Assembly: GCA_937891165.1 (NCBI GenBank)
Contig: CALAEX010000066.1
Location: 1,242-65,241, forward strand
Source: an uncultured Lachnospiraceae bacterium
Lineage (GTDB): Bacteria; Bacillota; Clostridia; Lachnospirales; Lachnospiraceae
Length of the DNA stretch: 64,000 nt
Direction: 5' to 3'
The translations under genes were made by a program, and so were the position numbers. The stretch's first letter is position 1; each line of letters begins with the position of its first letter. Positions 2,900-48,540 of this stretch are shown here, in pieces. The notes under the pieces are model-generated. The model did no database searches. It was not told the DNA's origin and saw only the letters and a list, made by a program, of their open reading frames with translations.

Positions 2900-3021
2900 T
2901 TTTCTTACCTACCTTTCTTATTTAAAATACTTAAAGTAATGTGCTTTCATCTAAATAACTATTATACGTAAAATGGATAAAATCATTGATATAATATTAT
3001 GGTGTAGATGAATAAAAATAA

Positions 3022-3090
3022 TTGAATAGCGCTCCGTAAAAAGTCAGAATAAATCGGAGGCGGAAGAGTATCACTTCTAATTGATACACA
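3022..3090 (+). promoter_or_regulatory. conserved two-hairpin 5' leader, copy 1 of 3
   Basis: Hairpin 1: gcgctccg (3029-3036) pairs with cggaggcgg (3055-3063). Hairpin 2: gtatca (3068-3073) pairs with tgatac (3082-3087). Homologous to the copies at 21986-22055 and 39606-39675. Confidence 0.6.
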
Positions 3091-3091
3091 A

Positions 3092-3142
3092 GTAAATATA
3101 GTTATGGGTGGAGATAATATCAAGAGCCCGGAGGTAATTATG
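3092..3142 (+). repeat. ~50-nt translation-initiation module shared with 7969-8022
   Basis: gtaaata..ATGGGTGGAGATAAT..ATCAAGAGCC(C/T)GGAGGTAATTATG is nearly identical at both loci. It includes the GGAGG RBS and the ATG at 3140. Confidence 0.8.
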
Positions 3143-4351: not shown

Positions 4352-4410
4352 ATATTTAATACCACTAGAAAACAGTTGATTAAGCTTAAAAGAAAGGAGA
4401 ATCGCTCCTC

Positions 4411-5499: not shown

Positions 5500-5582
5500 T
5501 TACTATTTAGCTTAATAAAAATTCTCTATCTCCCGAGAATCATCGAGAGATAGAGAAAATTAATTGTGCTAAATTCAATCCC
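5500..5582 (-). repeat. 85-nt rod-like conserved element, copy A (loop class agaatcat)
   Basis: Arms at 5522-5535 and 5544-5557 flank an 8-nt spacer at 5536-5543. Flanks: ttactatttagcttaataaaaa and aattaattgtgctaaattcaatccc. Confidence 0.9.
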
Positions 5583-5625
5583 GAAAAAGAAAATATCCAG
5601 TTGCAGGAATGACCTGCAACTGGAT
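5583..5625 (-). terminator. intrinsic terminator immediately upstream (on the - strand) of element A
   Basis: 13-bp stem atccagttgcagg/cctgcaactggat, followed on the - strand by attttcttttt. Confidence 0.6.
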
Positions 5626-7395: not shown

Positions 7396-7830
7396 TTAAT
7401 TTGAAGCTTGACCTGCTTTTTTACCACATGAGCATGTATATGTTATTTTTGTTTCACCAGATATTGTTTTATTACACGTCATTGTTTGAGATACATTGCC
7501 ATACCATTGTACCCACCAATCATATGGTTGAGCGGATACTACTTGACCACATTTACTACACACATGCCAACAATCATGTCCCTCATTCCAGGGAGATTTA
7601 TATTGATCTCCGTATAAATATGCGGTTCCTCCGCATGTAGTAGTCGTGGTTGTTGTTTTCTTAGTTGTGAAACATCCCCCAGAGACTGTCGATTCATAAC
7701 TATCTGCCAAAGAAATATCTGGCATATTATTGGCAGGATTAATATGCCAGTGTTTAAAAGGATAGAATGTACTACTTACATAGAATCCATAATGTGAATC
7801 TTTTTTAGCAAATTTCAGTCCTCCGAGGTT
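7396..7830 (-). CDS. Cys-rich small protein downstream of element copy B; start unresolved
   Basis: The frame is open from the element (7830) to the stop at 7396 (145 codons). The only in-frame ATG (7725) has no RBS. Contains several C-pairs (CSKCG, CSCG) and a Thr7 run. Confidence 0.55.
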   Translation of the reverse strand, partial: NLGGLKFAKKDSHYGFYVSSTFYPFKHWHINPANNMPDISLADSYESTVSGGCFTTKKTTTTTTTCGGTAYLYGDQYKSPWNEGHDCWHVCSKCGQVVSAQPYDWWVQWYGNVSQTMTCNKTISGETKITYTCSCGKKAGQASN

Positions 7831-7914
7831 ACTATTTAGCTTAATAAAAATTCTCTATCTCCCGATAAATACCGAGAGATAGAGAAAATTAATTGTGCTA
7901 AATTCAATCCCCCC
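7828..7914 (-). repeat. 85-nt rod-like conserved element, copy B (loop class ataaatac)
   Basis: Arms at 7851-7864 and 7873-7886, spacer at 7865-7872. Shares an extra ~60 nt with copy E on the high-coordinate side. Confidence 0.9.
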
Positions 7915-7944: not shown

Positions 7945-7954
7945 GATATATAAT
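7945..7954 (+). promoter_or_regulatory. promoter-like motif variant GATATATAAT
   Basis: Member of the GATATATTAT motif family, 66 nt upstream of the ATG at 8020. Confidence 0.4.
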
Positions 7955-7968
7955 TTTCGTGAATCAAA

Positions 7969-8022
7969 GTAAATATTTTAATGGGTGGAGATAATAATAT
8001 CAAGAGCCTGGAGGTAATTATG
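7969..8022 (+). repeat. ~50-nt translation-initiation module, copy 2
   Basis: See 3092-3142. Confidence 0.8.
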
Positions 8023-11087: not shown

Positions 11088-11097
11088 AATATATTAT
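11088..11097 (+). promoter_or_regulatory. promoter-like motif AATATATTAT
   Basis: Motif family member upstream of 11196. Confidence 0.35.
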
Positions 11098-11195
11098 TAT
11101 ATTGAATATATGTGAGTAGAGAATGATTATCTCTACTCGCATTATTTATTTTTATAAACTATTTATTATATTCTAAAGAAAGGAGGTCTTAAATT

Positions 11196-12374: not shown

Positions 12375-13622
12375 ATGAAAGAGAAGTACAATCTTAAAGA
12401 TGCCCTAAGAGCGTGTGACCTAGAATATCTGGATGACCGTTCTATAGAGGGTAAAGGAATGCTTACAACACCGCAGTATATCAATAGTATGCGAAGTGTT
12501 ATGTTTGCATCGCATTTAAACCAGTTTAAGAATATGGTACAACCAGATTTTCCTCAGTTCTTTACTGGTGGTGAAAATGTGGTTGGTAAGTATTCGGACG
12601 GTTATTTGAAACTTAACGAATCTACTGTATATAGAAAAATTGTTAAGTTTGAAGGATTAGTAGAAAATCCGACCGTATATGTTTTGTTTGTGTATAACAA
12701 AGTAAAGAAACGATTTGAAGTTATTAGACGAAAACCGAATGAAGACTTAATTGAAGTATTTGGATATAAATACGATAATACAGTCATTGACTCCTTTAAA
12801 GAAGGAGATGAAATTAGTGAAGACACTATAGCATTTAAGTCTACTTCCTATGATGAAAGTATGAACTATTCGTATGGGCGAGATGTCATCACACAGTTAT
12901 CTTTTGAACCGTTTACATCAGAAGATGCAGCTATCGTATCAGAAGAAATTCAAGACCTTCTTAGAAATGTAGAGGTTGAAGAAAATATTGCTACATTGAA
13001 TGAGAATGATTTTCCTCTTAATATTTATGGAGACGACTTAGAGTATAAAACATTTCCAGATATCGGGGAATTTTCTAAAGGTATCATTATGGCTACTAGA
13101 AGAAAATTTAATAATCAGGTCTTGTTTGATTTTAAAGAAGATATGCTTAGTAAAGTAACAGACACCGATACTAGATATTATCTGAATGGTAAAGTTGTTG
13201 ATATTGAGATTTATTGTAATAACGAGGATTTACAGGATAACTCATTTTATCATCAGATTTATAACTATTGGTGTTATCAGAATGCTTACTATAAAGATAT
13301 TAAAAGAACTTGTGAAGAGATTATGAATTCAGGAGAAGACTACACAAGGGATATTGATTATCTTTATAAACAAGCATGTTACATGTTAGACCTTAAAAAG
13401 AAATGGAAAGAAAAAGACAATGCTTTCTCCAATGTGCAAGTACATATCCTTGTGGAGAGAGAAATACCATTAGCAGTAGGACAGAAAATTTCGGGTCGTT
13501 ATGGAAATAAATCGGTAATATCTGATATTCGTAAGAAAGAAGATATGCCATTCTATTATGATGCTAATGGTAATAAAGTTCATGTACAGCTTATACTATC
13601 AGTGCTAGCTATTATAAACCGT
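12375..13622 (+). CDS. RNA polymerase beta subunit C-terminal half, exon 1 of 4
   Basis: SMRSVMFASHLNQ (compare NRALMGANMQRQ). GQKISGRYGNKSVISDI (compare GDKxAGRHGNKGVxS). Ends at ...LAIINR (compare PSRMN). 5' splice site: P1 aaaccgT (13616-13622) with Gcggttt (13633-13639). Confidence 0.9.
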
Positions 13623-14762
13623 AAACTGTTGTGCGGTTTTAAAACCTCTTTAATTGCTGGGAACTCTTTAATTAGACAATCAGCAGCCAAGACCTTAAAA
13701 TTATAGAAATAAATAATAAAAGGAGTGATCGATATAAAAAATATCATAGATATGTTATATCATGATGAAAAATGGAGAAAGATAAGATATAAAAATATTT
13801 GTAAAGATATATACGAAATTAGTTCATACGGTCGTGTAAGAAAAATTTCAAATAAAAGAATCTTATCATCTGCAATGGCTCCAAATGGTTACTTACGTAT
13901 AAACTTAATAATAGATGAATTTATAGAAAATAGTAATGAACATAAAAGGAATGCATTTTCAATTCATGTTTTAGTATTTACACATTTTTGTGATAAAAAT
14001 GATGTTGAAACATATTTGATTGGTAATTTATTTGAACGGAGATATGTTGTTAATCATAAAGATGGTAATAAGACAAATAATTATTATGATAATCTTGAAT
14101 TAATGACATATTCGGAAAATAATAAACATGCTTCAAAATTAGGGTTGATGCCTAAAGGAGAAAATAAACCAAATTCTCCAAGTTGGGTTACAAATGAATT
14201 AGTTGAAAAAATTTGTAAAATGCTAGATAAGGGCGAACCTAATTGGCGTATTATTCAGACACTTGAATTGCCAAATACGAAATATACAAATACATTGATA
14301 TCTCATATTTATTCAAAACAAGGTTGGGAATTTATATCAGAAAAATATAATTTCTATAATTCAAATTCTAAGTTTAAACGAAGTACTACATATTCATTAG
14401 AAATGATTACTTATATATGTAAACTATTGGAACATGGATATTCTAATAGAGATATAGCAGATATAGTCTGTAATAAATTCGAAATGGGTAAAGATAAAAT
14501 ACATGCTATACGAATAATCGTATCACGTATTAGAAATAAACAAAAATATATAGATATTAGTAAAAACTATAATTTTTAAGGTAAGGTTCAACGACTATCG
14601 AACACATAGCTTGAGAGAAATGCTTAAGTGAATAAGTAAGTAGAGTAGGAGAAATCCGAAACGGGAGGTAATGCATATCTGGTAATAGGATATGCTTTAA
14701 AGATATAGTCTGAACTATATAGGAATATATAGAAGTATTTATATACGTTAACAAAAGCAATG
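13623..14762 (+). mobile_element. group I intron 2 (IA2-like, subtype A) carrying an HNH homing endonuclease gene
   Basis: P1 as above. P10: ctgttgt (13626-13632) with 3' exon acaacag (14763-14769), 7 bp. Core: taaaacctctttaattgctgggaactctttaattagacaatcagcagcc, gttcaacGACTATcgaa, ccgaaacgggagg, agatATAGTCtga. The omega G is 14762. Confidence 0.9.
13725..14579 (+). CDS. intron-encoded HNH homing endonuclease
   Basis: VVNHKDGNKTNNYYDNLELMTYSENNKHA is an HNH motif. N-terminus has EKWRKI...YEISSYGRVRK. GTG start after AAAGGAG. Confidence 0.85.
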   Translation: MIDIKNIIDMLYHDEKWRKIRYKNICKDIYEISSYGRVRKISNKRILSSAMAPNGYLRINLIIDEFIENSNEHKRNAFSIHVLVFTHFCDKNDVETYLIGNLFERRYVVNHKDGNKTNNYYDNLELMTYSENNKHASKLGLMPKGENKPNSPSWVTNELVEKICKMLDKGEPNWRIIQTLELPNTKYTNTLISHIYSKQGWEFISEKYNFYNSNSKFKRSTTYSLEMITYICKLLEHGYSNRDIADIVCNKFEMGKDKIHAIRIIVSRIRNKQKYIDISKNYNF

Positions 14763-15287
14763 ACAACAGCAGCCGTTATTGGGGAATTGGCTACGAACTT
14801 TATTGGAAAACGAGTTAGTGCTCATATGAAGACTCTTAAGACTATGAAAGAAAAAGAGAAAATATTATTTGATGTTCTTAAGATGTACAATGTTGCCTAT
14901 TGTGAATTCTTGACTAAGAAATATAAAGCAATGACTACAGAGGAGAAGAAGAACTTTTTACAGTACTGCGAAGATGTTAAGATTCACTTTAATCAACCAT
15001 CTATGGGTGAAAAAGAACCTATGTTTTATCGTATTATGAATCTGAAGGAAAAATATAAAGATATTTTGAATCCAGATGAAATGTGGGTTCATCAGTTTGG
15101 TAGAGATATCCGTTGTGTTATGGATGGATATATTGCCAATATGTATATTATTACTCTGAAACAAACAGCGAAGAAAGGTTTCTCAGTAAGAGGAATTGGT
15201 GCTGTTAGTGCTAAGGGTATACCGGAAAGAAGTTATAAATCAAAATCTCATAAAGATTTATATTCATCAACCGCTATTAGATTCGGT
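14763..15287 (+). CDS. RNA polymerase beta C-half, exon 2 of 4
   Basis: Begins TTAAVIGELATNFIG (compare NIGQILETHLG) and ends ...AIRFG. 525 nt, in frame. The Met at 14760 in the track is intron sequence. Confidence 0.88.
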
Positions 15288-15511
15288 GACCGAATTTGCC
15301 GAAGTAAAACTTCTTTAATTGCTGGGAACTCTTTAATTAGACAATCAGCAGCGAAGCTTAGAAATAAGAACGTTCAACGACTAGCTCTAGTAGCGTAGGA
15401 CTTAATAAAAACTCTTTAAGTTCGAAACAAGAAGCATTTAATTATGAAGATATAGTCTGATACTTATAGGAATATAAGAGAGTAAATTCGTAAGAATTAT
15501 AAACGTAATAG
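15288..15511 (+). mobile_element. group I intron 3 (subtype B, no ORF)
   Basis: P1: ttcggT (15282-15287) with Gccgaa (15298-15303). P10: gaattt (15292-15297) with 3' exon gaattc (15512-15517). Core: gttcaacGACTAgct...tagcgtagga...ttcgaaa...gaagatATAGTCtgatac. Close paralog of intron 8. Confidence 0.88.
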
Positions 15512-15526
15512 GAATTCGAAACGCTT
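15512..15526 (+). CDS. RNA polymerase beta C-half, 15-nt micro-exon (EFETL); 3' end tentative
   Basis: RFG|EFE restores the universal beta RFGEME motif. The last 6 nt, acgctt, pair with gggcgt (15534-15539) as P1 of intron 4. Confidence 0.6.
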
Positions 15527-15772
15527 AGAAATTGGGCGTCATACACAGAGATGTGTATTGCTTAAACCTCTTTAATTGCTGGAACCTCTTTAAGTAGACA
15601 ATCAGCAGCGAAGTTCGAAAGGAAACGTTCAACGACTATCGAAAGACTATTGAAAAATAGAATCGAGTAGAGTAGGAGAAATCCGAAACGGGAGGTATCT
15701 GTAAAAGATAAAGATATAGTCTGGCTATATATGAAAATATATAGGTTAATTAGCAATTTCTGTATTGCAATG
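15527..15772 (+). mobile_element. group I intron 4 (subtype A, no ORF)
   Basis: Full core (ttaaacctctttaattgctggaacc..gacaatcagcagcg..gttcaacGACTATcgaaag..ccgaaacgggagg..agatATAGTCtgg). Candidate P1 at 15521-15526/15534-15539, P2 hairpin atacac/gtgtat (15541-15558). 3' end gcaatG|cag matches intron 2 (gcaatG|aca). The 5' boundary is less certain than the 3' boundary. Confidence 0.75.
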
Positions 15773-16300
15773 CAGCCAGAAGAAGTTGCATTAATCCATG
15801 CATTTTACCGCACTTCAGTAAAAGCACGAAGAGACTTTGGTAAAGCCTTACTTAATAATGAACCTATTATTACAGTAGGAAAAACTTATGAATCCAGAGT
15901 AGCTGAGTTCTTCGAAATCATTTTAAAATCGTTAGGATTTAGATTAGAATTCTTAGATTCTGATGATGATTTTGTAGAACTTAGTGTAGATGATTTACAG
16001 TGGTTTGAATTAGCAAATGGTAAATCAGTATTCTGTTCTGAGTATGATAAATATATTATTGATCGTAGAAATGAGATTGGTGCTGAAATCTTAGAAGAAT
16101 ATGGTGCATTAAATATTGATGAATTGAATGAGATGATTGATGACGAAATTAAAGACAGACAGTATTTTATTGCTAGTGATATAAAAGACGTTTATTTGAA
16201 TTGCGTTGAAATTGAACCTACATTAGTGAGCAGAGATATTGTATCTTGTGAAGAGATTTCTAGTCAGTTAGAATTAATTGACGTTCCGGTGGAAGTTTAA
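15773..16300 (+). CDS. RNA polymerase beta C-half, exon 4 of 4
   Basis: QPEEVALIHAFY... (compare EMEVWALEAYG / EMERDCLIAHGA). ESRVAEFFEIILKSLGF (compare PESFKVLIKELQSLG). The joined 4-exon ORF is 2316 nt and in frame. Confidence 0.85.
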   Translation, partial: QPEEVALIHAFYRTSVKARRDFGKALLNNEPIITVGKTYESRVAEFFEIILKSLGFRLEFLDSDDDFVELSVDDLQWFELANGKSVFCSEYDKYIIDRRNEIGAEILEEYGALNIDELNEMIDDEIKDRQYFIASDIKDVYLNCVEIEPTLVSRDIVSCEEISSQLELIDVPVEV

Positions 16301-17268: not shown

Positions 17269-17355
17269 GTTACTATTTAGTTAAATAAGATTTCTCTATC
17301 TCCCGTGTTTTACCGAGAGATAGAGAAAATTAATTGTGCTAAATTCAATCCCCCT
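17269..17355 (-). repeat. 85-nt rod-like conserved element, copy C (loop class tgttttac; degenerate lower stem)
   Basis: Arms at 17292-17305 and 17314-17327, spacer at 17306-17313. Confidence 0.9.
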
Positions 17356-17401: not shown

Positions 17402-17737
17402 TTAAACCCATACAGTACCAGATAATGATGATGAATTTTCCCACCATTGGTCTGGTAAAGCCGAATTGTATAGATAATCTCCACTCTCATTAGTTAATAT
17501 AACACTCACATGTTGCCATATAGGATTTGATGGGTTACCGCCTACAGATCTTGTTACATAAAAATTCACTGGATGTGTTTTATCACTACCAGCAGCGACA
17601 CCAGCGTTATATCTATTAGTATAAATATTTTGTATACTAGTTACTATAGCTGCGGGAGTTTTTGCACTAGGGGTTGACCCACATGATTTGCATTTATTAT
17701 ATATTGAATCAACCCCAGTTTGAAAAGACGAGAGGTT
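17402..17737 (-). CDS. small protein downstream of element copy D, with no canonical start codon
   Basis: 112 codons are open from the element to the TAA (17404-17402): NLSSFQTGVDSIYNKCKSCG...SGTVWV. There is no in-frame ATG or TTG, and the first GTG is about codon 62. Absent from the ORF track. Confidence 0.55.
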   Translation of the reverse strand, partial: NLSSFQTGVDSIYNKCKSCGSTPSAKTPAAIVTSIQNIYTNRYNAGVAAGSDKTHPVNFYVTRSVGGNPSNPIWQHVSVILTNESGDYLYNSALPDQWWENSSSLSGTVWV

Positions 17738-17819
17738 ACTATTTAGCTTAATAAAAATTCTCTATCTCCCGAGAATCATCGAGAGATAGAGAAAATTAAT
17801 TGTGCTAAATTCAATCCCC
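17735..17819 (-). repeat. 85-nt rod-like conserved element, copy D (loop class agaatcat)
   Basis: Arms at 17758-17771 and 17780-17793, spacer at 17772-17779. Confidence 0.9.
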
Positions 17820-17928
17820 AAGTCTCTCCCGTACTACTAAAACCTCAGGTAATAGTGTAATCTTCTTAAAAAATAAAAGTATATAATTCTACTGTACAAG
17901 GTGCTTGTACATATGGTGATTGAAATAC

Positions 17929-21827: not shown

Positions 21828-21916
21828 GTTACTATTTAGCTTAATAAAAATTCTCTATCTCCCGATAAATACCGAGAGATAGAGAAAATTAATTGTGCTA
21901 AATTCAATCCCCCCCC
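21828..21916 (-). repeat. 85-nt rod-like conserved element, copy E (loop class ataaatac)
   Basis: Arms at 21851-21864 and 21873-21886, spacer at 21865-21872. C8 run at the high-coordinate end. Confidence 0.9.
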
Positions 21917-21949: not shown

Positions 21950-21959
21950 GATATATAAT
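21950..21959 (+). promoter_or_regulatory. promoter-like motif variant GATATATAAT
   Basis: Same context as 7945-7954. Confidence 0.4.
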
Positions 21960-21985
21960 TTTTGTGAATCAAAGTAAATAAAAAA

Positions 21986-22055
21986 CTAAATAGTGCTCTG
22001 TAAATATAAATAATCGGAGGCGGAACTTGATAGAAGTTTGAAAAGACTATCAATA
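21986..22055 (+). promoter_or_regulatory. conserved two-hairpin 5' leader, copy 2 of 3
   Basis: gtgctctg (21993-22000) pairs with cggaggcgg (22015-22023); both C-to-T changes keep pairing as G:U. Second hairpin: ttgatag (22027-22033) with ctatcaa (22047-22053). Confidence 0.6.
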
Positions 22056-22083
22056 AAAATAAAAAAAGAAAGGCGGACTTTAT

Positions 22084-22602
22084 ATGGTCCGAGTGGTGAA
22101 TACCATGACAAAATTAGCAGAAATTAAAAATAACAAAATCGAAGCAACTGTGGACATGTTTATCGTTCCTAACTGTCCAGCTAGATTCTTGGAAGGATTT
22201 TCTTATGAAAATCCAGCTCCTGGTTATATGAATCTCAGAGATGATACCATCGATAGGATTGCAAAACTTAACGGTGTTGAAATCCATAAAGGAGAAAAAC
22301 TCATTCAAGTTTGGCTCACTTCCAAACTTGAATTGAGAAGCGAAAACCTAAATGACCATGGGTTTAGAGCTTTAAGTGAAAGTGGAGAGGAGGTTCATCT
22401 CCACTTTAACTGCCATAGTATACCGGCAACAATGTTGAACGGTAAAACTGAAGGTGAGGTGTTTGATATGAAAATCAAATGCTATGATAAAGAGAAAAAC
22501 GAGTATGAACTTTTGATGCATATTAGATGTAATCAGAGTGAATACCGTTATAGACGTTTCGGTAATTTCGAAAATGTGTTGGCAGAGTTGATTGAATGTT
22601 AA
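22084..22602 (+). CDS. hypothetical protein (172 aa)
   Basis: AAAGGCGGA RBS-like sequence and an intact ORF. Confidence 0.7.
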   Translation: MVRVVNTMTKLAEIKNNKIEATVDMFIVPNCPARFLEGFSYENPAPGYMNLRDDTIDRIAKLNGVEIHKGEKLIQVWLTSKLELRSENLNDHGFRALSESGEEVHLHFNCHSIPATMLNGKTEGEVFDMKIKCYDKEKNEYELLMHIRCNQSEYRYRRFGNFENVLAELIEC

Positions 22603-23161: not shown

Positions 23162-23261
23162 TTTTTATCCTCCTTTTGTAAGTTACTCTTTTTGTTAATT
23201 TAATAATACTAATCGAAGATAGATATATTTTATTGATATATCATTCTTATGAATAAAGTAT

Positions 23262-23334
23262 GAAATATTAGATTAGGGGCAAATCGCAGGGTCCAACTCA
23301 CTCTGAATCGCGGGTTCGAATCCCGCATATTTTT
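23262..23334 (+). tRNA. tRNA-like gene with a non-canonical anticodon loop
   Basis: 7-bp acceptor stem (23262-68/23327-33), D arm gatt/aatc with a GGGG loop, T arm gcggg-TTCGAAT-cccgc (23310-26). The anticodon stem agggt/actct encloses CCAACTC, which has no U33 and a pyrimidine at position 37. No CCA is encoded. Confidence 0.5.
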
Positions 23335-39583: not shown

Positions 39584-39593
39584 GATATATTAT
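39584..39593 (+). promoter_or_regulatory. promoter-like motif GATATATTAT
   Basis: Lies upstream of leader copy 3 and of gene 39723. Confidence 0.4.
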
Positions 39594-39605
39594 ACTTTTA
39601 AACAA

Positions 39606-39675
39606 CTAAATAGCGCTCCGTAAATATAAATAATCGGAGGCGGAACTTGATAATGGTTCTAAAATATTATCAATA
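39606..39675 (+). promoter_or_regulatory. conserved two-hairpin 5' leader, copy 3 of 3
   Basis: gcgctccg (39613-39620) pairs with cggaggcgg (39635-39643). Second hairpin: ttgataat (39647-39654) with attatcaa (39666-39673). Confidence 0.6.
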
Positions 39676-39722
39676 CTACAAGAGAGGGCATAGACAATTT
39701 TGTCTATGGAAGGTAAAACAAA

Positions 39723-40241
39723 ATGTCAAAAACAACATTAGAACAGTATGGAGGAACTATTATGGAATCCGTTCCAGAAGCAACAGATGTAATTGTAGAA
39801 AAGTGCTTAAAGCAGTTAGTATATAATATCAAAGATACTTCAGAAGTATTTCTTAATTTCTGTTTACTGTATCTTGAAGAGAAGATGCCTTTAAAAGATA
39901 TTCCTGAAAAAATGGGAATTTCAAAATTAATGGCATCTGCTTGGGCTGCTGATATTATTGGGACGGTTAAGAATATGACTGTTGGATACAAGCGTAAACC
40001 TGAACTTGATAAGAAGGAAGTGTTATTAGATGAACGTCCTTCTAAGTGTAACGTCCATCCAAAGATTTATGGAATGGATATTTTTGATTATGCAAAACAG
40101 TTTAATGCTGATTATATGGATATGTACACAGGTACAATTTACCATATTCAGGATTACAATCATGCTAAGCGTATGGGTATGCCTAATTTTGGAATTAGGG
40201 TATCACAGGACGGAAATACTTTAGGATATATCAGGGAGTAG
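39723..40241 (+). CDS. hypothetical protein (172 aa)
   Basis: GGAAGGT RBS and an intact ORF. Confidence 0.7.
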   Translation: MSKTTLEQYGGTIMESVPEATDVIVEKCLKQLVYNIKDTSEVFLNFCLLYLEEKMPLKDIPEKMGISKLMASAWAADIIGTVKNMTVGYKRKPELDKKEVLLDERPSKCNVHPKIYGMDIFDYAKQFNADYMDMYTGTIYHIQDYNHAKRMGMPNFGIRVSQDGNTLGYIRE

Positions 40242-44068: not shown

Positions 44069-45007
44069 TTAGAAAGAGCTTAAGAAGTCAACAACTTCAT
44101 GTCTTGTTTTTGGAGACATATTTGCATAGATAGTATTGTCTTTATCTTTGATAATAACATGATTTAATCCATTATCAAATCCAACGATATCATCCATAGA
44201 CAAATCAAATGCTTCCATAATGACTTGAGTATTAACATCTTTATTTCCAGCATATTCTAAAATTTCTTTTAGAGGAATTAAAATATCCTGAGTATAATTA
44301 TCACGAATATCATTTGCAAAATTTCCGGAATGGAAACCTGCAGATTCCATAGTAATGAGAGCTTCGGATTTCTTAATAAATTTTGGTTTACCTTCCATAT
44401 TTGCGTCATGATGACTAGGGTATAAAACCCAATCATAGGTAATTAACTTACGAACGACAACATAAGGTTCACCATTAATATTTTGAATACCGGCAATAGC
44501 TCTACAACTAAAGGAAGGAATAAGACCCTGAATGATTTCATTATAAAATCCTCTTCCTGCTTCAGTACCAGATGCAGTTTGAATTGTGGCTCTTAAGATA
44601 TCACCTTTTACTTCAGGACGTAAGATTTTATGTGAACGTCTTGACATTTCAATTGCCTGAATACGTTCACTAGATAAATCTTTGTCTTTGTACTGACAAT
44701 AAGGATGATCCATTTCACCGTACCATGCATTAGTTCTTAACATGGTAATGATTCTTTCAGCCTTTAACATTTCGTCTATATTTGGACCCCAGTATTTTCG
44801 CTGATTTCTGTTTAAACAACGAAATGTCTGGAGGATGGTTTCAAACTCTGCATAGTTAGTACCTGCTTTATCATGGTATGTAAGATTAGTGATAATATTA
44901 TCTTCAGGAGATACCTGTTCTGCAATATACATAAGACCAATATTATCACCGGGCATTTTTTGATAGCCAAATTGTGTATTGCAACGATTTAAAGCTACTC
45001 CACTCAT
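44069..45007 (-). CDS. putative prohead (T4 gp21-like) maturation protease
   Basis: GEMDHP (candidate His) and SFSCRAIAG (candidate Ser), then YDWVLYPSHHDA. Family assignment is from memory only. Confidence 0.65.
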   Translation of the reverse strand: MSGVALNRCNTQFGYQKMPGDNIGLMYIAEQVSPEDNIITNLTYHDKAGTNYAEFETILQTFRCLNRNQRKYWGPNIDEMLKAERIITMLRTNAWYGEMDHPYCQYKDKDLSSERIQAIEMSRRSHKILRPEVKGDILRATIQTASGTEAGRGFYNEIIQGLIPSFSCRAIAGIQNINGEPYVVVRKLITYDWVLYPSHHDANMEGKPKFIKKSEALITMESAGFHSGNFANDIRDNYTQDILIPLKEILEYAGNKDVNTQVIMEAFDLSMDDIVGFDNGLNHVIIKDKDNTIYANMSPKTRHEVVDFLSSF

Positions 45008-45081: not shown

Positions 45082-45091
45082 AATATATTAT
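45082..45091 (+). promoter_or_regulatory. promoter-like motif AATATATTAT
   Basis: Lies in a divergent intergenic region, far (about 210 nt) from the ATG at 45305. Confidence 0.3.
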
Positions 45092-45304
45092 ATTATAGTA
45101 TACAAAAGATAAAATACATACTATCACGATAAATTCTATAGGGTAAATGTAATGGGTTTATACTATAGATAAAAAAGAAACCAATAACGAATTCTTAAAT
45201 ATATTTTAATCTTTAATGGATTAAGTAACAATAAATATTGTGAAATGGTGGTGCTATATGCACCACCTGTGTATAACCCAAACGGTTATAGAAAGGAGAG
45301 ACAA

Positions 45305-46072: not shown

Positions 46073-46938
46073 ATGGGCAAAAAGAGAGCTGAAGTAAAAC
46101 GTCTTAATTTTGACGTAGAAGCTTATAATGATGTCATTAATGGTAGAGGGTTCTTTGTTGTAGATCCGCCAGAAGTAGATATCGATGAGACCAGAAAGAA
46201 AGCTTTGTATGGTCCGCAATCGCCATTATATGGAAGCACCTTCTCTGATGAGCAGTCCTTCCAAGAACGTTACCGTTGTAAATGCGGTGAGTTCAAAGGA
46301 ACTATCTTTGAGGGGGAAACATGTCCGAAATGTAATACAAAAATCGAATTTCGTGATGTAGACCCTTACATGACAGGATGGATTCCTCTTGGTGCTAAGA
46401 AAATTATCGCACCACATTACTACCGTATTTTACAACAAGCTATCGGTAGAGAAGTTTTCCCAGAAATTATTTTCTTGAAAATGAAAGTAACAAAGAATGG
46501 AAGACGAGAAAAATTAACGGAAGAAGAGATGAAAGAATTCGAACCTAAATCTCCATTTTATGGAATTGGGTTAGAAGAATTTAGAGAAAGATATTTTGAG
46601 ATTATTGATTATTTTAAGAAGTTAAAACCTGCAAAAGCAGAGACTTTTGACCGTCTTAGAAAAGAGGTAAACTCTGTATTTACATCTCATATTCCTGTAT
46701 ATACCACATTACTTAGACAGCAGTCAGTTACCAGTGAGAACTTCTATTTTACCGGTATTGATAAACAGATTAATACTTGTGTAAACTTAGCAAGAAACTT
46801 ACGTGATTCGGAAGAAATTGAAACACCAGTTATCTTAAATAGAATTCAGTCCAGAGCAAATGCTATTTGGGAAGCTAACTTTGAGCTTCTTAACACAAAA
46901 GATGGATTAATTCGTGATCAGTTGATTGGTGGGTCGCT
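46073..46938 (+). CDS. RNA polymerase beta' subunit N-terminal half, exon 1 of 5
   Basis: ATG follows AAAGGAG. Zn-ribbon CKCGEFKG..CPKCNTKIE (compare rpoC CxCG..CxxC). Ends ..RDQLIGGS + ct. P1: ggtcgcT (46932-46938) with Ggtgacc (46948-46954). Confidence 0.9.
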
Positions 46939-47218
46939 TAACAGTTGGGTGACCTTAAACCTATCTAACTGCGGGAACGTATTGAAAGGGATTAATTACC
47001 AAATCATATCAGTAATGAATATGATGGCAAAGAGTAACTACCTTTGGTATGGTAAAAAGATTAATCACTAATATAATCCGCAACGAAGACTCTTTCATTA
47101 GAGTAACGCTCAACGACTATCGAAAGACTATTTTTATTAAAATAGAATCGAGTAGAGTAGGAGAAATCCGAAACGGTAGGCAATCTAAATATTAGATTGA
47201 AGATATAGTCTAAATATG
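46939..47218 (+). mobile_element. group I intron 5 (subtype A variant, no ORF)
   Basis: P1 as above. P10: agttg (46943-46947) with caact (47219-47223). Core: gctcaacGACTATcgaaag..ccgaaacggtagg..gaagatATAGTCtaa. The omega G is 47218. Confidence 0.88.
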
Positions 47219-47252
47219 CAACTTTACAGCACGCAATGTCATTGTTCCCGAT
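47219..47252 (+). CDS. RNAP beta' N-half, 34-nt micro-exon (L)NFTARNVIVPD
   Basis: Restores GGSLNFTARNVIVPD (compare GKRVDYSGRSVIxxxP). The last 7 nt, tcccgaT, pair with Gtcggga (47266-47272). Confidence 0.88.
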
Positions 47253-47680
47253 TGATCAAACGTAGGTCGGGATTAAACCTCTTTAATTGCGGGAACGAAT
47301 TTTATAATAATACTTACTAAATTATGATAGTGATATTATAATGGCAATGGGTAATTCCAAAGGTATAGTAAAAAAAGTATTATTTTAATCAATCCGCAGC
47401 TAAGCTTCTTGATTTAAATATAATATAAATGGAGGTGATTTATTGAATGAATTTGAATTAAAAGTCAATTTAGAATTGTATTCATTAAATGATTTGGATT
47501 TAGAGATTTGGAAAAATATAAATCAAGAAGAAAGTTCAACGACTATCGAAAACATAGTGTAAGAGAAATACTTATATGAAGAAGTGAGTAGAGTAGGAGA
47601 AATCCGAAACGGGAGGTATTGTATATCTGGTAATAGGATATACTTTAAAGATATAGTCTAATAATAATTTATTATTATTG
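47253..47680 (+). mobile_element. group I intron 6 (subtype A) with a degenerate homing-endonuclease remnant
   Basis: P1 at 47246-47252/47266-47272. Core: ttaaacctctttaattgcgggaac..aatccgcagc..gttcaacGACTATcgaaaac..ccgaaacgggagg..agatATAGTCtaa. The omega G is 47680. Confidence 0.88.
47443..47562 (+). pseudogene. remnant of an HNH-type homing endonuclease N-terminus inside intron 6
   Basis: GGAGGTG RBS followed by a 39-codon ORF (LNEFELKVNLELYSLNDLDLEIWKNINQEE...) that runs into the P7 core. EIWKNI resembles EKWRKI in the 13725 endonuclease. Confidence 0.4.
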
Positions 47681-47999: not shown

Positions 48000-48291
48000 A
48001 AACAAATCTGCAATTGCTCAGGTTAAACCTCTTTAACTGTCTGGAAGTTATCAATACATATAAGTTACTAAACTAAGTAGAAATATATTAGTGATAGTGA
48101 AAATATTTATATGTGATATAATCAGCAGCGAAGATTCTTTAAGTAGAATAACGTTCAACGACTATCGAAAAGATGTATATGTGAATAACGTATATAGAAC
48201 TTAGTAGAGTAGGAGAAATCCGAAACGGGAGGTATTAAGTATCTTGTAATGAGATATTTAGTAAAGATATAGTCTAATAAAATATTTATTG
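48000..48291 (+). mobile_element. group I intron 7 (subtype A, no ORF)
   Basis: P1: cctgggT (47993-47999) with Gctcagg (48016-48022). P10: ctgca (48008-48012) with tgcag (48296-48300). Core: ttaaacctctttaactgtctgg..aatcagcagcg..gttcaacGACTATcgaaaag..ccgaaacgggagg..agatATAGTCtaa. The omega G is 48291. Confidence 0.88.
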
Positions 48292-48308
48292 TAAATGCAG
48301 ACTTCGAT
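48292..48308 (+). CDS. RNAP beta' N-half, 17-nt micro-exon (L)NADFD
   Basis: ta aat gca gac ttc gat completes ILPG-L-NADFD. Nt 48302-48308 form P1 of intron 8. Confidence 0.9.
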
Positions 48309-48540
48309 AAACCCGAAAGTCTCTGTCGAAGTAAAACTTCTTTAATTGCTGGGAACTCTTTAAATAGACAATCAGCAGCGAAGCTCTTAATAGAGAACGT
48401 TCAACGACTAGCTTTTATAGCGTAGGATACTATAAAATCTTTTAGTATTCGAAATGGGGAGCAACGAAAGTTGAAGATATAGTCTGATACCTTTAGGAAT
48501 AAAGGAAAGTGAATTCTAGATAAGAATTGTAAACGTAACG
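48309..48540 (+). mobile_element. group I intron 8 (subtype B, no ORF)
   Basis: P1: cttcgaT (48302-48308) with Gtcgaag (48325-48331). P10: gtctct (48319-48324) with ggagac (48541-48546). Core nearly identical to intron 3. The omega G is 48540. Confidence 0.9.

Follow-up and report, generated by a model that had tools for sequence, protein, structure and literature searches.

A candidate structured RNA module in the leaders of three predicted early genes of an uncultivated giant phage

Why would three genes with unrelated products begin their messages with nearly the same 70 nucleotides (nt)? The question is raised by a 64,000-nt stretch of DNA, hereafter the window (NCBI GenBank assembly GCA_937891165.1, contig CALAEX010000066.1, positions 1,242 to 65,241 of the forward strand, filed under an uncultured Lachnospiraceae bacterium). 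An initial annotation, made from the letters alone, had described there a 5′ leader of two hairpins in three copies, and had read the differences between the copies as those of a functional RNA on the plus strand. Three copies alone make thin evidence for a structure. With homologous leaders from related contigs added, we consider it likely, though short of certain, that a plus-strand RNA structure has been selected in these leaders. The module is probably a real and previously undescribed regulatory RNA element of narrow distribution, and a cis-acting post-transcriptional element is the best-supported class to which its features would assign it.

Judged by gene content, the window belongs to an uncultivated giant phage of AR9-like type, a lineage that uses two multisubunit RNA polymerases. 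To our knowledge, giant phages of the AR9/PBS1 lineage carry their own multisubunit RNA polymerases and have known promoters, and their post-transcriptional control is almost unstudied.

Results

Three copies before three unrelated genes

The three copies lie on the plus strand at 3022-3090, 21986-22055 and 39606-39675 of the window, exactly where the initial annotation had placed them. Each is about 66-72 nt long and sits between an AR9-type early promoter motif, on its 5′ side, and the start codon of a gene, about 50 nt further on. In the window there are exactly three occurrences of the 14-mer AATCGGAGGCGGAA against 0.13 expected, and identity between copies 2 and 3 reaches 87% over 77 nt (repeat family D15). 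A covariance model (R1) was made from all the variants described below and scanned over the 64 kb with filters off. It returned the three copies only, at 75-86 bits, with the next match at 16 bits; no further diverged copy in the window rose above this noise.

The proteins encoded downstream are mutually unrelated by sequence comparison, as had been annotated, and searches of Pfam, PHROGs and PDB sequences gave no match, nor any recognisable nucleic-acid-binding family among the products. Two of the three annotated start codons hold. Gene 1 begins at ATG 3140 (in relatives, reading from ATG 3104 meets a stop codon) and gene 3 at 39723; gene 2 more likely begins at ATG 22105 than at the annotated ATG 22084, which is AGG in a relative. 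A confident AlphaFold model was obtained for the gene 2 product (22105-22602; pLDDT 87, mostly beta), for which PDB and BFVD gave no structural neighbour at E below 0.001, and an invariant QSEYRYRRFGxFE-like C-terminal motif is found in its homologs down to 32% identity. The predicted structure of the gene 3 product was of too poor quality for use.

At the 5′ edge, each module has a conserved single-stranded flank of consensus YTRAATA, which is TTGAATA in copy 1 (3022-3028) and CTAAATA in copy 2 (21986-21992). The leader had been said to start with CTAAATAG; copy 1 begins TTGAATAG instead. A link between the module and an 85-nt repeat of the window, proposed because both contain CTAAATAG, was rejected, since seven matches to this 8-mer against 4.7 expected are within chance.

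Eight variants from related phages

Relatives were collected from ENA and Logan, by searching for homologs of the three downstream proteins and then looking up the contigs that encode them; exact-protein look-ups with gene 1 and with gene 2 from either start were unsuccessful. This gave eight distinct variants of the module, each preceding an ortholog of one of these three genes. The gene 1 variants are those of the window and of contig L143, whose protein is 58% identical to that of the window. For gene 2 there are the window variant, with an identical leader in L125, and that of L127 (65%), and for gene 3 the window variant and those of L121 (100%), L131 (87%) and L134 (92%). Scanned with the covariance model, about 170 kb of related sequence gave one copy per related locus and no extras. 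The module is absent from the leader of a gene 2 homolog that is 33% identical (L137, a more distant phage).

Searches further afield were negative. Scanning IMG/VR with the 14-mer gave chance matches only, and longer gapped patterns in IMG/VR, JGI metagenomes and GTDB genomes gave nothing or GC-rich chance matches. Rfam 15, run on the whole window at gathering thresholds, reported four group I intron matches and no family for the module, and in permissive scans of copies 2 and 3 (E up to 10) the best match had 20 bits against a threshold of 62 and lay on the wrong strand. The module thus appears, by sequence, to be confined to one uncultivated clade.

Hairpin 1 is paired throughout and covaries

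The 5′ arm of hairpin 1 reads G-Y, a bulged G and CUCYG, and pairs with CGGAG-R-C on the 3′ arm, giving 2 + 5 base pairs (bp) closed by an A/U-rich loop of 14-19 nt that falls into two length classes, 14 and 18-19 nt. In copy 1 (3029-3061, plus strand), GC-(G)-CTCCG at 3029-3036 and CGGAGGC at 3055-3061 enclose an 18-nt loop. In copy 2 (21993-22021, plus), GT-(G)-CTCTG at 21993-22000 and CGGAGGC at 22015-22021 enclose 14 nt, and copy 3 (39613-39641, plus) has GC-(G)-CTCCG at 39613-39620, CGGAGGC at 39635-39641 and a 14-nt loop. The two C-to-T changes that set copy 2 apart both yield G:U pairs, as had been noted, and this copy of the hairpin folds on the plus strand only.

Across the eight variants, all 56 of 56 cells of hairpin 1 are paired, and two pairs are changed on both sides. 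One goes from G:C to A:U in L127; the other goes from C:G to U:A in L121 and L134, and three variants show the intermediate U:G. This level of pairing and covariation was matched by only 14 of 500 column shuffles, and registers slid from the chosen one were 30-57% paired. A register with the bulge on the 3′ arm was tried, showed no significant covariation and was replaced by that of RNAfold and RNAalifold. The pairing of hairpin 1 was maintained in the further homologs, a check that had been set beforehand; in hairpin 2, one pair is broken in L134.

The conservation of hairpin 1 claimed at the outset is thus borne out, with one correction to its 3′ arm: GGAGG is present in six of the eight variants, and the other two have GGAGA. 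Sequence is also conserved where it is single-stranded, namely in the YTRAATA flank, the loop ends UAAA...AUAAAU, the bulged G and the GGAA that follows.

Strand asymmetry of the stem changes

Stem transitions that affect one side only tell the strands apart. There are eight of these among the variants, two in hairpin 1, two in a helix named S1 (below), one in hairpin 2 and three in hairpin 3, and all eight make G:U pairs on the plus strand with no A·C mismatch. A sign test gives p ~0.004, subject to a mild ascertainment bias, as the helices were sought on the plus strand with G:U allowed. Differences in the flanking coding sequence are balanced (C/T 162 versus G/A 167), so that no mutational bias lies behind the 8/8 result. 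Together with the compensatory pairs in hairpins 1, 2 and 3, this supports the original proposal of a functional plus-strand RNA structure in the 5′ leader.

Hairpin 2, helix S1 and hairpin 3

The module had been described as two hairpins, and both are real; the description misses a helix, S1, and a third, gene-specific hairpin. S1 is formed by GGAA(G/C), which follows hairpin 1 directly without a linker and is complementary to the loop of hairpin 2 in every variant: GGAAG/CUUCU in the gene 1 type, GAACUU/AAGUUY in the gene 2 type and GGAACU/GGUUCU in the gene 3 type. In copy 1 (3062-3087, plus), S1 pairs GGAAG 3062-3066 with CTTCT 3074-3078, and hairpin 2 pairs GTATCA 3068-3073 with TGATAC 3082-3087. 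In copy 2 (22022-22053, plus), S1 consists of GAACTT 22023-22028 and AAGTTT 22034-22039 and hairpin 2 of TTGATAG 22027-22033 and CTATCAA 22047-22053, the two overlapping by 2 nt. In copy 3 (39642-39673, plus), S1 consists of GGAACT 39642-39647 and GGTTCT 39655-39660 and hairpin 2 of TTGATAAT 39647-39654 and ATTATCAA 39666-39673.

Hairpin 2 had been thought to differ in sequence in every copy. This is correct for copy 1; those of copies 2 and 3 are homologous and one compensatory pair apart (G-C to A-T in the DNA), which is the G-C to A-U change that separates the gene 2 and gene 3 types. Within the gene 1 type, GUAUCA/UGAUAC becomes GCAUC/GAUGU in L143, through one compensatory pair (T-A to C-G) and one G:U. 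The broken pair in L134 is a U·C.

S1 and hairpin 2 are nearly isoenergetic. S1 scores better than pairings with shuffled hairpin 2 loops (p 0.0015-0.17), and at its end, where G and C distinguish the gene 1 type from the other two types, the partner base differs to match. In the gene 1 type the two helices do not overlap, and the loop lengths (L1 = 1, L2 = 0-1, L3 = 3-4 nt; in copy 1 they are 1, 0 and 3 nt) fit an H-type pseudoknot. The full helices overlap by 1-2 nt in the gene 2 and gene 3 types, which would call for a trimmed pseudoknot or a two-state switch. S1 and hairpin 2 would either make up an H-type pseudoknot that stacks on hairpin 1 or compete as alternative folds.

Hairpin 3 is specific to each gene and abuts the Shine-Dalgarno sequence in all three units, so that it stands between the module and the ribosome-binding site. 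In unit 1 (3106-3139, plus) it is GGGT...GCCC at 3106-3129, followed at once by the Shine-Dalgarno GGAGG at 3130-3134. In unit 2 (22074-22104, plus) CGGACT 22074-22079 pairs with GGTCCG 22086-22091, after which comes a short hairpin over the ribosome-binding site, and in unit 3 (39689-39708, plus) CATAGACA pairs with TGTCTATG directly 5′ of the Shine-Dalgarno GGAAGG. Among gene 3 orthologs three pairs of this hairpin are changed on both sides, and L134 has an extra base pair; in the gene 2 ortholog the hairpin is rebuilt, from CGGAC/GUCCG via GUCUG to CGGGAA/UUCCCG.

Two candidate devices in the leaders were tried and set aside. Pairing of the 5′ arm CUCCG with the real Shine-Dalgarno, which would make an anti-Shine-Dalgarno switch, is possible in unit 1 only, the one unit in which the module can pair with the real ribosome-binding site. 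A conserved upstream reading frame is absent from the gene 1 type, and the peptides that could be read (4, 12, 20 and 59 amino acids (aa)) are not conserved.

Predicted promoters of the module-bearing units

In AR9, the early promoter consensus is AAATATATATTAT-N6-G(+1) and the late consensus AACA-N6-TA/G (PMC5312081). Early promoters are recognised there by the RNA polymerase packaged in the virion, and AR9 early 5′ untranslated regions (UTRs) are mostly 30-50 nt. RATATATTAT-N6-R occurs nine times in the window against 1.6 expected, eight of the nine just upstream of plus-strand genes, and an early-type motif precedes the gene in all three module-bearing units. The core match is exact for copy 3 (GATATATTAT-N6-A, 39584-39600, plus, predicted start 39600) and has one mismatch for copy 1 (GATATAATAT-N6-G, 2988-3004, plus, predicted start ~3004) and for copy 2 (GATATATAAT-N6-G, 21950-21966, plus, predicted start 21966). 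The unit 1 promoter, which is conserved in L143 and L144, can also be read as an extended -10 box, TGnTATAAT; that of unit 2 is conserved in L125 and L127. From these motifs we infer that the module is transcribed from AR9-type early promoters. The predicted starts lie 5-27 nt upstream of the module and precede the conserved block by 17, 19 and 5 nt, giving 5′ UTRs of 123-139 nt, as compared with 24-59 nt for the other predicted early leaders of the window, two longer exceptions (92 and 147 nt) aside.

A late promoter within the conserved 5′ flank was rejected, as the full AACA-N6-TA exists in the window copy 3 only. There the exact match AACAACTAAATAG (39601-39613, plus) overlaps the flank, and RNA from it would start at 39612, one nt 5′ of hairpin 1, in this strain only. 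Over the whole window AACA-N6-TAR is depleted (19 versus 40 expected), and the existing sites lie just upstream of many genes, for example at 4371, 5770, 8463, 17967, 20578(-), 23365, 32292, 41615(-) and 45041(-), a pattern that suits a working promoter motif avoided at other sites. Both AR9 motifs, early and late, thus seem to behave as signals in this DNA.

Other predicted early units have features of their own. At 11088-11150 the early motif AATATATTAT-N6-G runs straight into a strong hairpin, GTGAGTAGAGA...TCTCTACTCGC, with a T-run behind it, and the ribosome-binding site of the next gene is about 45 nt further on; a short early RNA or an attenuator is a possible reading. The leader at 45082-45245, predicted at about 147 nt, contains a CTATAG...CTATAG hairpin that is conserved in L121 and unrelated to the module. 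At 23235-23334 a tRNA-Val gene (anticodon AAC) lies 11 nt downstream of a predicted early start, which suggests an early-expressed phage tRNA.

Exchange of leader segments

Several leaders are mosaics. In L121 the module is 85% identical to that of the window, against 100% for the flanks and coding sequence, and its hairpin 1 segment has been replaced by the copy 1 type. L134 has a gene 2-type hairpin 2 in front of gene 3, and the window copies 2 and 3 share the short loop that other strains do not have. A further leader, at 7945-8020, is a hybrid whose promoter and first 14 transcribed bases are those of copy 2, and whose hairpin 3 and ribosome-binding site are those of copy 1; the joint is at a shared AAGTAAATA, and the module itself is absent. 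These mosaics show, at the level of sequence, that leader segments are exchanged by recombination within the genome, whereby copies are both kept alike and reshuffled. The compensatory pattern argues that the exchanged segments are still under selection as RNA.

The hairpin 3/Shine-Dalgarno cassette of gene 1, ATGGGTGGAG...AGCCCGGAGGTAATTATG (3104-3142), recurs at 7981-8022 before an unrelated gene starting at 8020. It is also found almost unchanged at positions 1-60 of contig L155, before the most diverged gene 1 ortholog, with only 46% identity in protein; the 57 nt upstream on that contig cover hairpin 3 but not the module region.

The 85-nt repeat mentioned above is a separate family of five 85-86-nt copies with 86-99% identity (5500-5585, 7829-7914, 17270-17355, 17736-17821 and 21829-21914). 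It has a 15-16-bp hairpin with a variable loop and then a T-run on the minus strand, lies directly upstream of the starts of paralogous minus-strand genes, and twice stands back-to-back with early promoters (7945 and 21950). It looks like a terminator/promoter cassette, and as such would be a closer analogue of the PeSL cassettes of T4-type phages than the module is.

The phage and its other mobile sequences

The window is AT-rich and has at least four group I introns and one tRNA-Val gene; among its products are split subunits of RNA polymerase beta type and a 2959-aa virion-type protein that includes a lysozyme domain. For one RNA polymerase subunit, of beta type, the best phage relatives (Staphylococcus giant phages, Listeria phage LPJP1 and Bacillus AR9/PBS1) are only about 35% identical, megablast of the window against the phage collection found no near relative, and the closest contigs come from ENA and Logan metagenome assemblies. 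The clade is present in the ENA/Logan runs ERZ28594527, ERZ27297695, ERZ27317731, ERZ27256936, SRR14556459 and SRR27608064. Going by the nearest phages, the host clade is presumably Firmicutes.

Group I intron copies and fragments include the four Rfam matches and repeat families D3-D10 and D13, with up to seven members; pieces lie, among other places, at 13608-13691, 14581-14711, 15268-15743, 46914-47229, 47531-47659 and 48147-48516. They are grouped in two regions, one of them with RNA polymerase subunit genes, as in AR9. Finally, L121 has at 14341-16089 (corresponding to about 44069-45007 of the window) a TnpB/OrfB_IS605-type gene (437 aa) beside a shortened 109-aa gene. At this site the window has an intact 312-aa gene, so that an IS605-family insertion separates the strains.

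Discussion

What might the module do? The explanation that we favour, with a rough probability of 0.4, is that it acts as a compact 5′-proximal roadblock or protective fold against decay that depends on the 5′ end. Transcribed from AR9-type early promoters by a virion-type RNA polymerase, the module would act in cis, on the RNA and after transcription, independently of the ribosome-binding site. Such a fold, perhaps with a factor bound to it, would slow 5′-end-dependent decay (RNase J1 or RNase Y in Firmicutes), and the three early messages would thereby gain a longer or regulated lifetime. AR9 early transcripts behaved as poorly protected from a 5′-monophosphate-dependent exonuclease (TEX) (PMC5312081), a sensitivity that would make protection of the 5′ end useful.

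There are precedents in Firmicutes, where structures in the 5′ leader or bound ribosomes stabilise mRNA, early RNA of phage SP82 included (PMC7509114; works cited in PMC3997798). We compared the module with four of them, the 5′-proximal stem-loop of aprE, the ribosome stall of ermC, the STAB-SD of cryIIIA and the polypurine stabiliser of SP82 early RNA. Like these, it lies in cis within a long 5′ UTR, well away from the real ribosome-binding site, and combines a GGAGG tract with stable structure; one of the precedents is itself in a Bacillus phage early mRNA, and the presumed host clade has the 5′-to-3′ exonuclease RNase J1. Unlike them, its GGAGG is paired, with the helix as the object of selection, its hairpin stands off the predicted 5′ end, and it has an extra helix or pseudoknot and a conserved loop.

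Several observations weigh against 5′ protection. Hairpin 1 is not at the predicted 5′ end but is preceded by 12-35 unpaired nt, so that the classical rule of a 5′-terminal stem-loop, as in ompA and aprE, would apply only if the 5′ tail were trimmed first; the hypothetical late start at 39612 of copy 3 is the only one that would place the hairpin suitably. The hairpins are of modest stability, with fold z-scores of -0.6 to -2.9, and the statistics are modest too, as there are only eight variants, related by descent and recombination. Only three of about 13 predicted early units carry the module. Between orthologs it is not more conserved than its flanks, and the likeness of the paralogous copies could thus owe much to gene conversion. 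Moreover, the strong conservation of the loop and flank sequences would be no less compatible with a sequence-specific binding partner than with a passive roadblock.

Such a partner is the basis of the strongest rival, in which the module is the operator of a trans-acting RNA-binding protein, from phage or host, that recognises the loop, bulge and flank of hairpin 1 and co-regulates translation or decay of the three early messages, for example in a later shut-off during infection. We hold this to be doubtful in itself, yet, given that the single-stranded flank, loop ends and bulge are conserved in sequence, nearly as likely as 5′ protection. The occurrence of one module on three unrelated genes and on no other early leader of the window is regulon-like, and GGA motifs in and beside a hairpin resemble CsrA-type sites, a likeness that we take as a lead only. 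However, the conservation in question may reflect recent gene conversion, the hairpin 1 loop comes in its two length classes, no candidate binding protein was found, and a position about 50 nt from the ribosome-binding site with a hairpin between would be unusual for a translational operator. A known case is the pseudoknot operator of the T4 gene 32 mRNA leader. It has, as the module may have, an H-type pseudoknot 5′ in the leader, tens of nt before the ribosome-binding site, but it needs an unstructured A/U-rich tract from pseudoknot to ribosome-binding site and autoregulates one gene; in the module-bearing leaders hairpin 3 intervenes, three unrelated genes are involved, and their products belong to no recognisable nucleic-acid-binding family. 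An exposed GGAGG would suit a different role, that of a Shine-Dalgarno decoy of STAB-SD type that recruits the 30S subunit and so protects the mRNA, or translates a leader peptide from a UUG 6 nt downstream. The tract occurs in most variants (as GGAGGUG in L127), the UUG is present in the gene 2 and gene 3 types, and the cryIIIA and SP82 elements are precedents. Yet the tract is the base-paired 3′ arm of hairpin 1, where it is pairing that covaries; in the GGAGA variants the step from G to A, which weakens 16S pairing, is matched by C-to-U on the opposite arm, which argues for selection on the helix rather than on complementarity to 16S rRNA, and the gene 1 type has no start codon after the motif. 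A decoy, or a short upstream reading frame, is thus improbable. The compact fold, the possible pseudoknot with its conserved unpaired nucleotides and the two nearly isoenergetic helices would also befit the aptamer of a small-ligand riboswitch, which we nevertheless rank as the most improbable of all the readings: Rfam had no match, no aptamer joined to an expression platform was found (neither a terminator nor, in two of three units, pairing with the Shine-Dalgarno), and the unrelated downstream genes show no metabolic link.

Given the mosaics in L121 and L134, the short loop common to copies 2 and 3 and the hybrid leader at 7945-8020, the module could simply be a piece of a recombining leader cassette, without RNA function and with incidental hairpins. 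The PeSL cassettes of T4-type phages are a precedent (PMC2839356): these short regulatory repeats go with early promoters and recombine among themselves, which reshuffles leaders and genes. Recombination between copies is indeed found here as well. Still, we think a cassette without RNA function unlikely, as compensatory changes and an 8/8 plus-strand excess of G:U are unexpected in neutral DNA, and the module has been kept before the same three orthologs although their proteins have diverged to 58-65% identity. Nor is it a composite of promoter and terminator: the PeSL stem-loop is a terminator upstream of the promoter, whereas the module is downstream, inside the transcript, without a U-run and with covariation at the RNA level. 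An effect on the transcribing polymerase, by antitermination or pausing, would recall the put RNAs of HK022, which modify RNA polymerase in cis, and EAR-type RNAs; these are likewise two adjacent stem-loops of about 70 nt downstream of early promoters, repeated in one phage. The module is promoter-proximal, with two or three stem-loops that always come early in the transcript, at a variable distance from the start, and the phage encodes its own multisubunit RNA polymerases. This likeness is one of layout, however. There are no terminators in the leader after the hairpins and none inside units 2 and 3, each unit ends at its first strong terminator, and unit 2 is a single gene, so that attenuation or put-like antitermination would have no target; there is no similarity to the put or EAR sequences and models or to any other Rfam family, and the polymerase is probably the multisubunit enzyme of the phage. 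We regard such a role as very improbable. A site acting as DNA, that is, a regulator binding site or a cruciform near the early promoters, could explain inverted repeats beside promoters and the recurrence of TGATA/TATCA half-sites in hairpin 2. But the changes that make G:U on the plus strand make A·C mismatches on the complementary strand and in any cruciform, the order of TGATA and TATCA is flipped between the gene 1 type and the gene 2 and gene 3 types, and both the arm spacing (8 to 19 nt) and the promoter distance vary; a DNA site is highly improbable on these grounds.

A bolder version of 5′ protection deserves mention, although we consider it a long shot: hairpin and pseudoknot together might be a phage-encoded exoribonuclease-resistant RNA (xrRNA), a bacterial counterpart of viral xrRNAs that stalls RNase J1. 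The xrRNAs of flaviviruses and plant viruses are compact folds of hairpin plus pseudoknot able to block a 5′-to-3′ exonuclease, and the likeness is one of topology only; they belong to eukaryotic RNA viruses, where they sit in 3′ UTRs or in intergenic regions and adopt defined folds of ring-like shape. We know of no such block established for phages or for RNase J1. If true, the module would determine how long selected early messages last, or a stable RNA derived from the leader would remain; the early transcripts of this phage may be without a protective 5′ triphosphate. Interest in the module would then rise sharply.

As a structured leader module on phage early messages, the element is of a familiar kind; as a sequence it is a candidate new RNA family, absent from Rfam. 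Being compact (~70 nt) and portable, it could be tried as an mRNA-stability or expression part in Firmicutes, and its mosaic variants show base by base how leader segments pass between genes within a phage genome. A covarying leader module on a few early messages may provide a first handle on post-transcriptional control in the AR9/PBS1 lineage.

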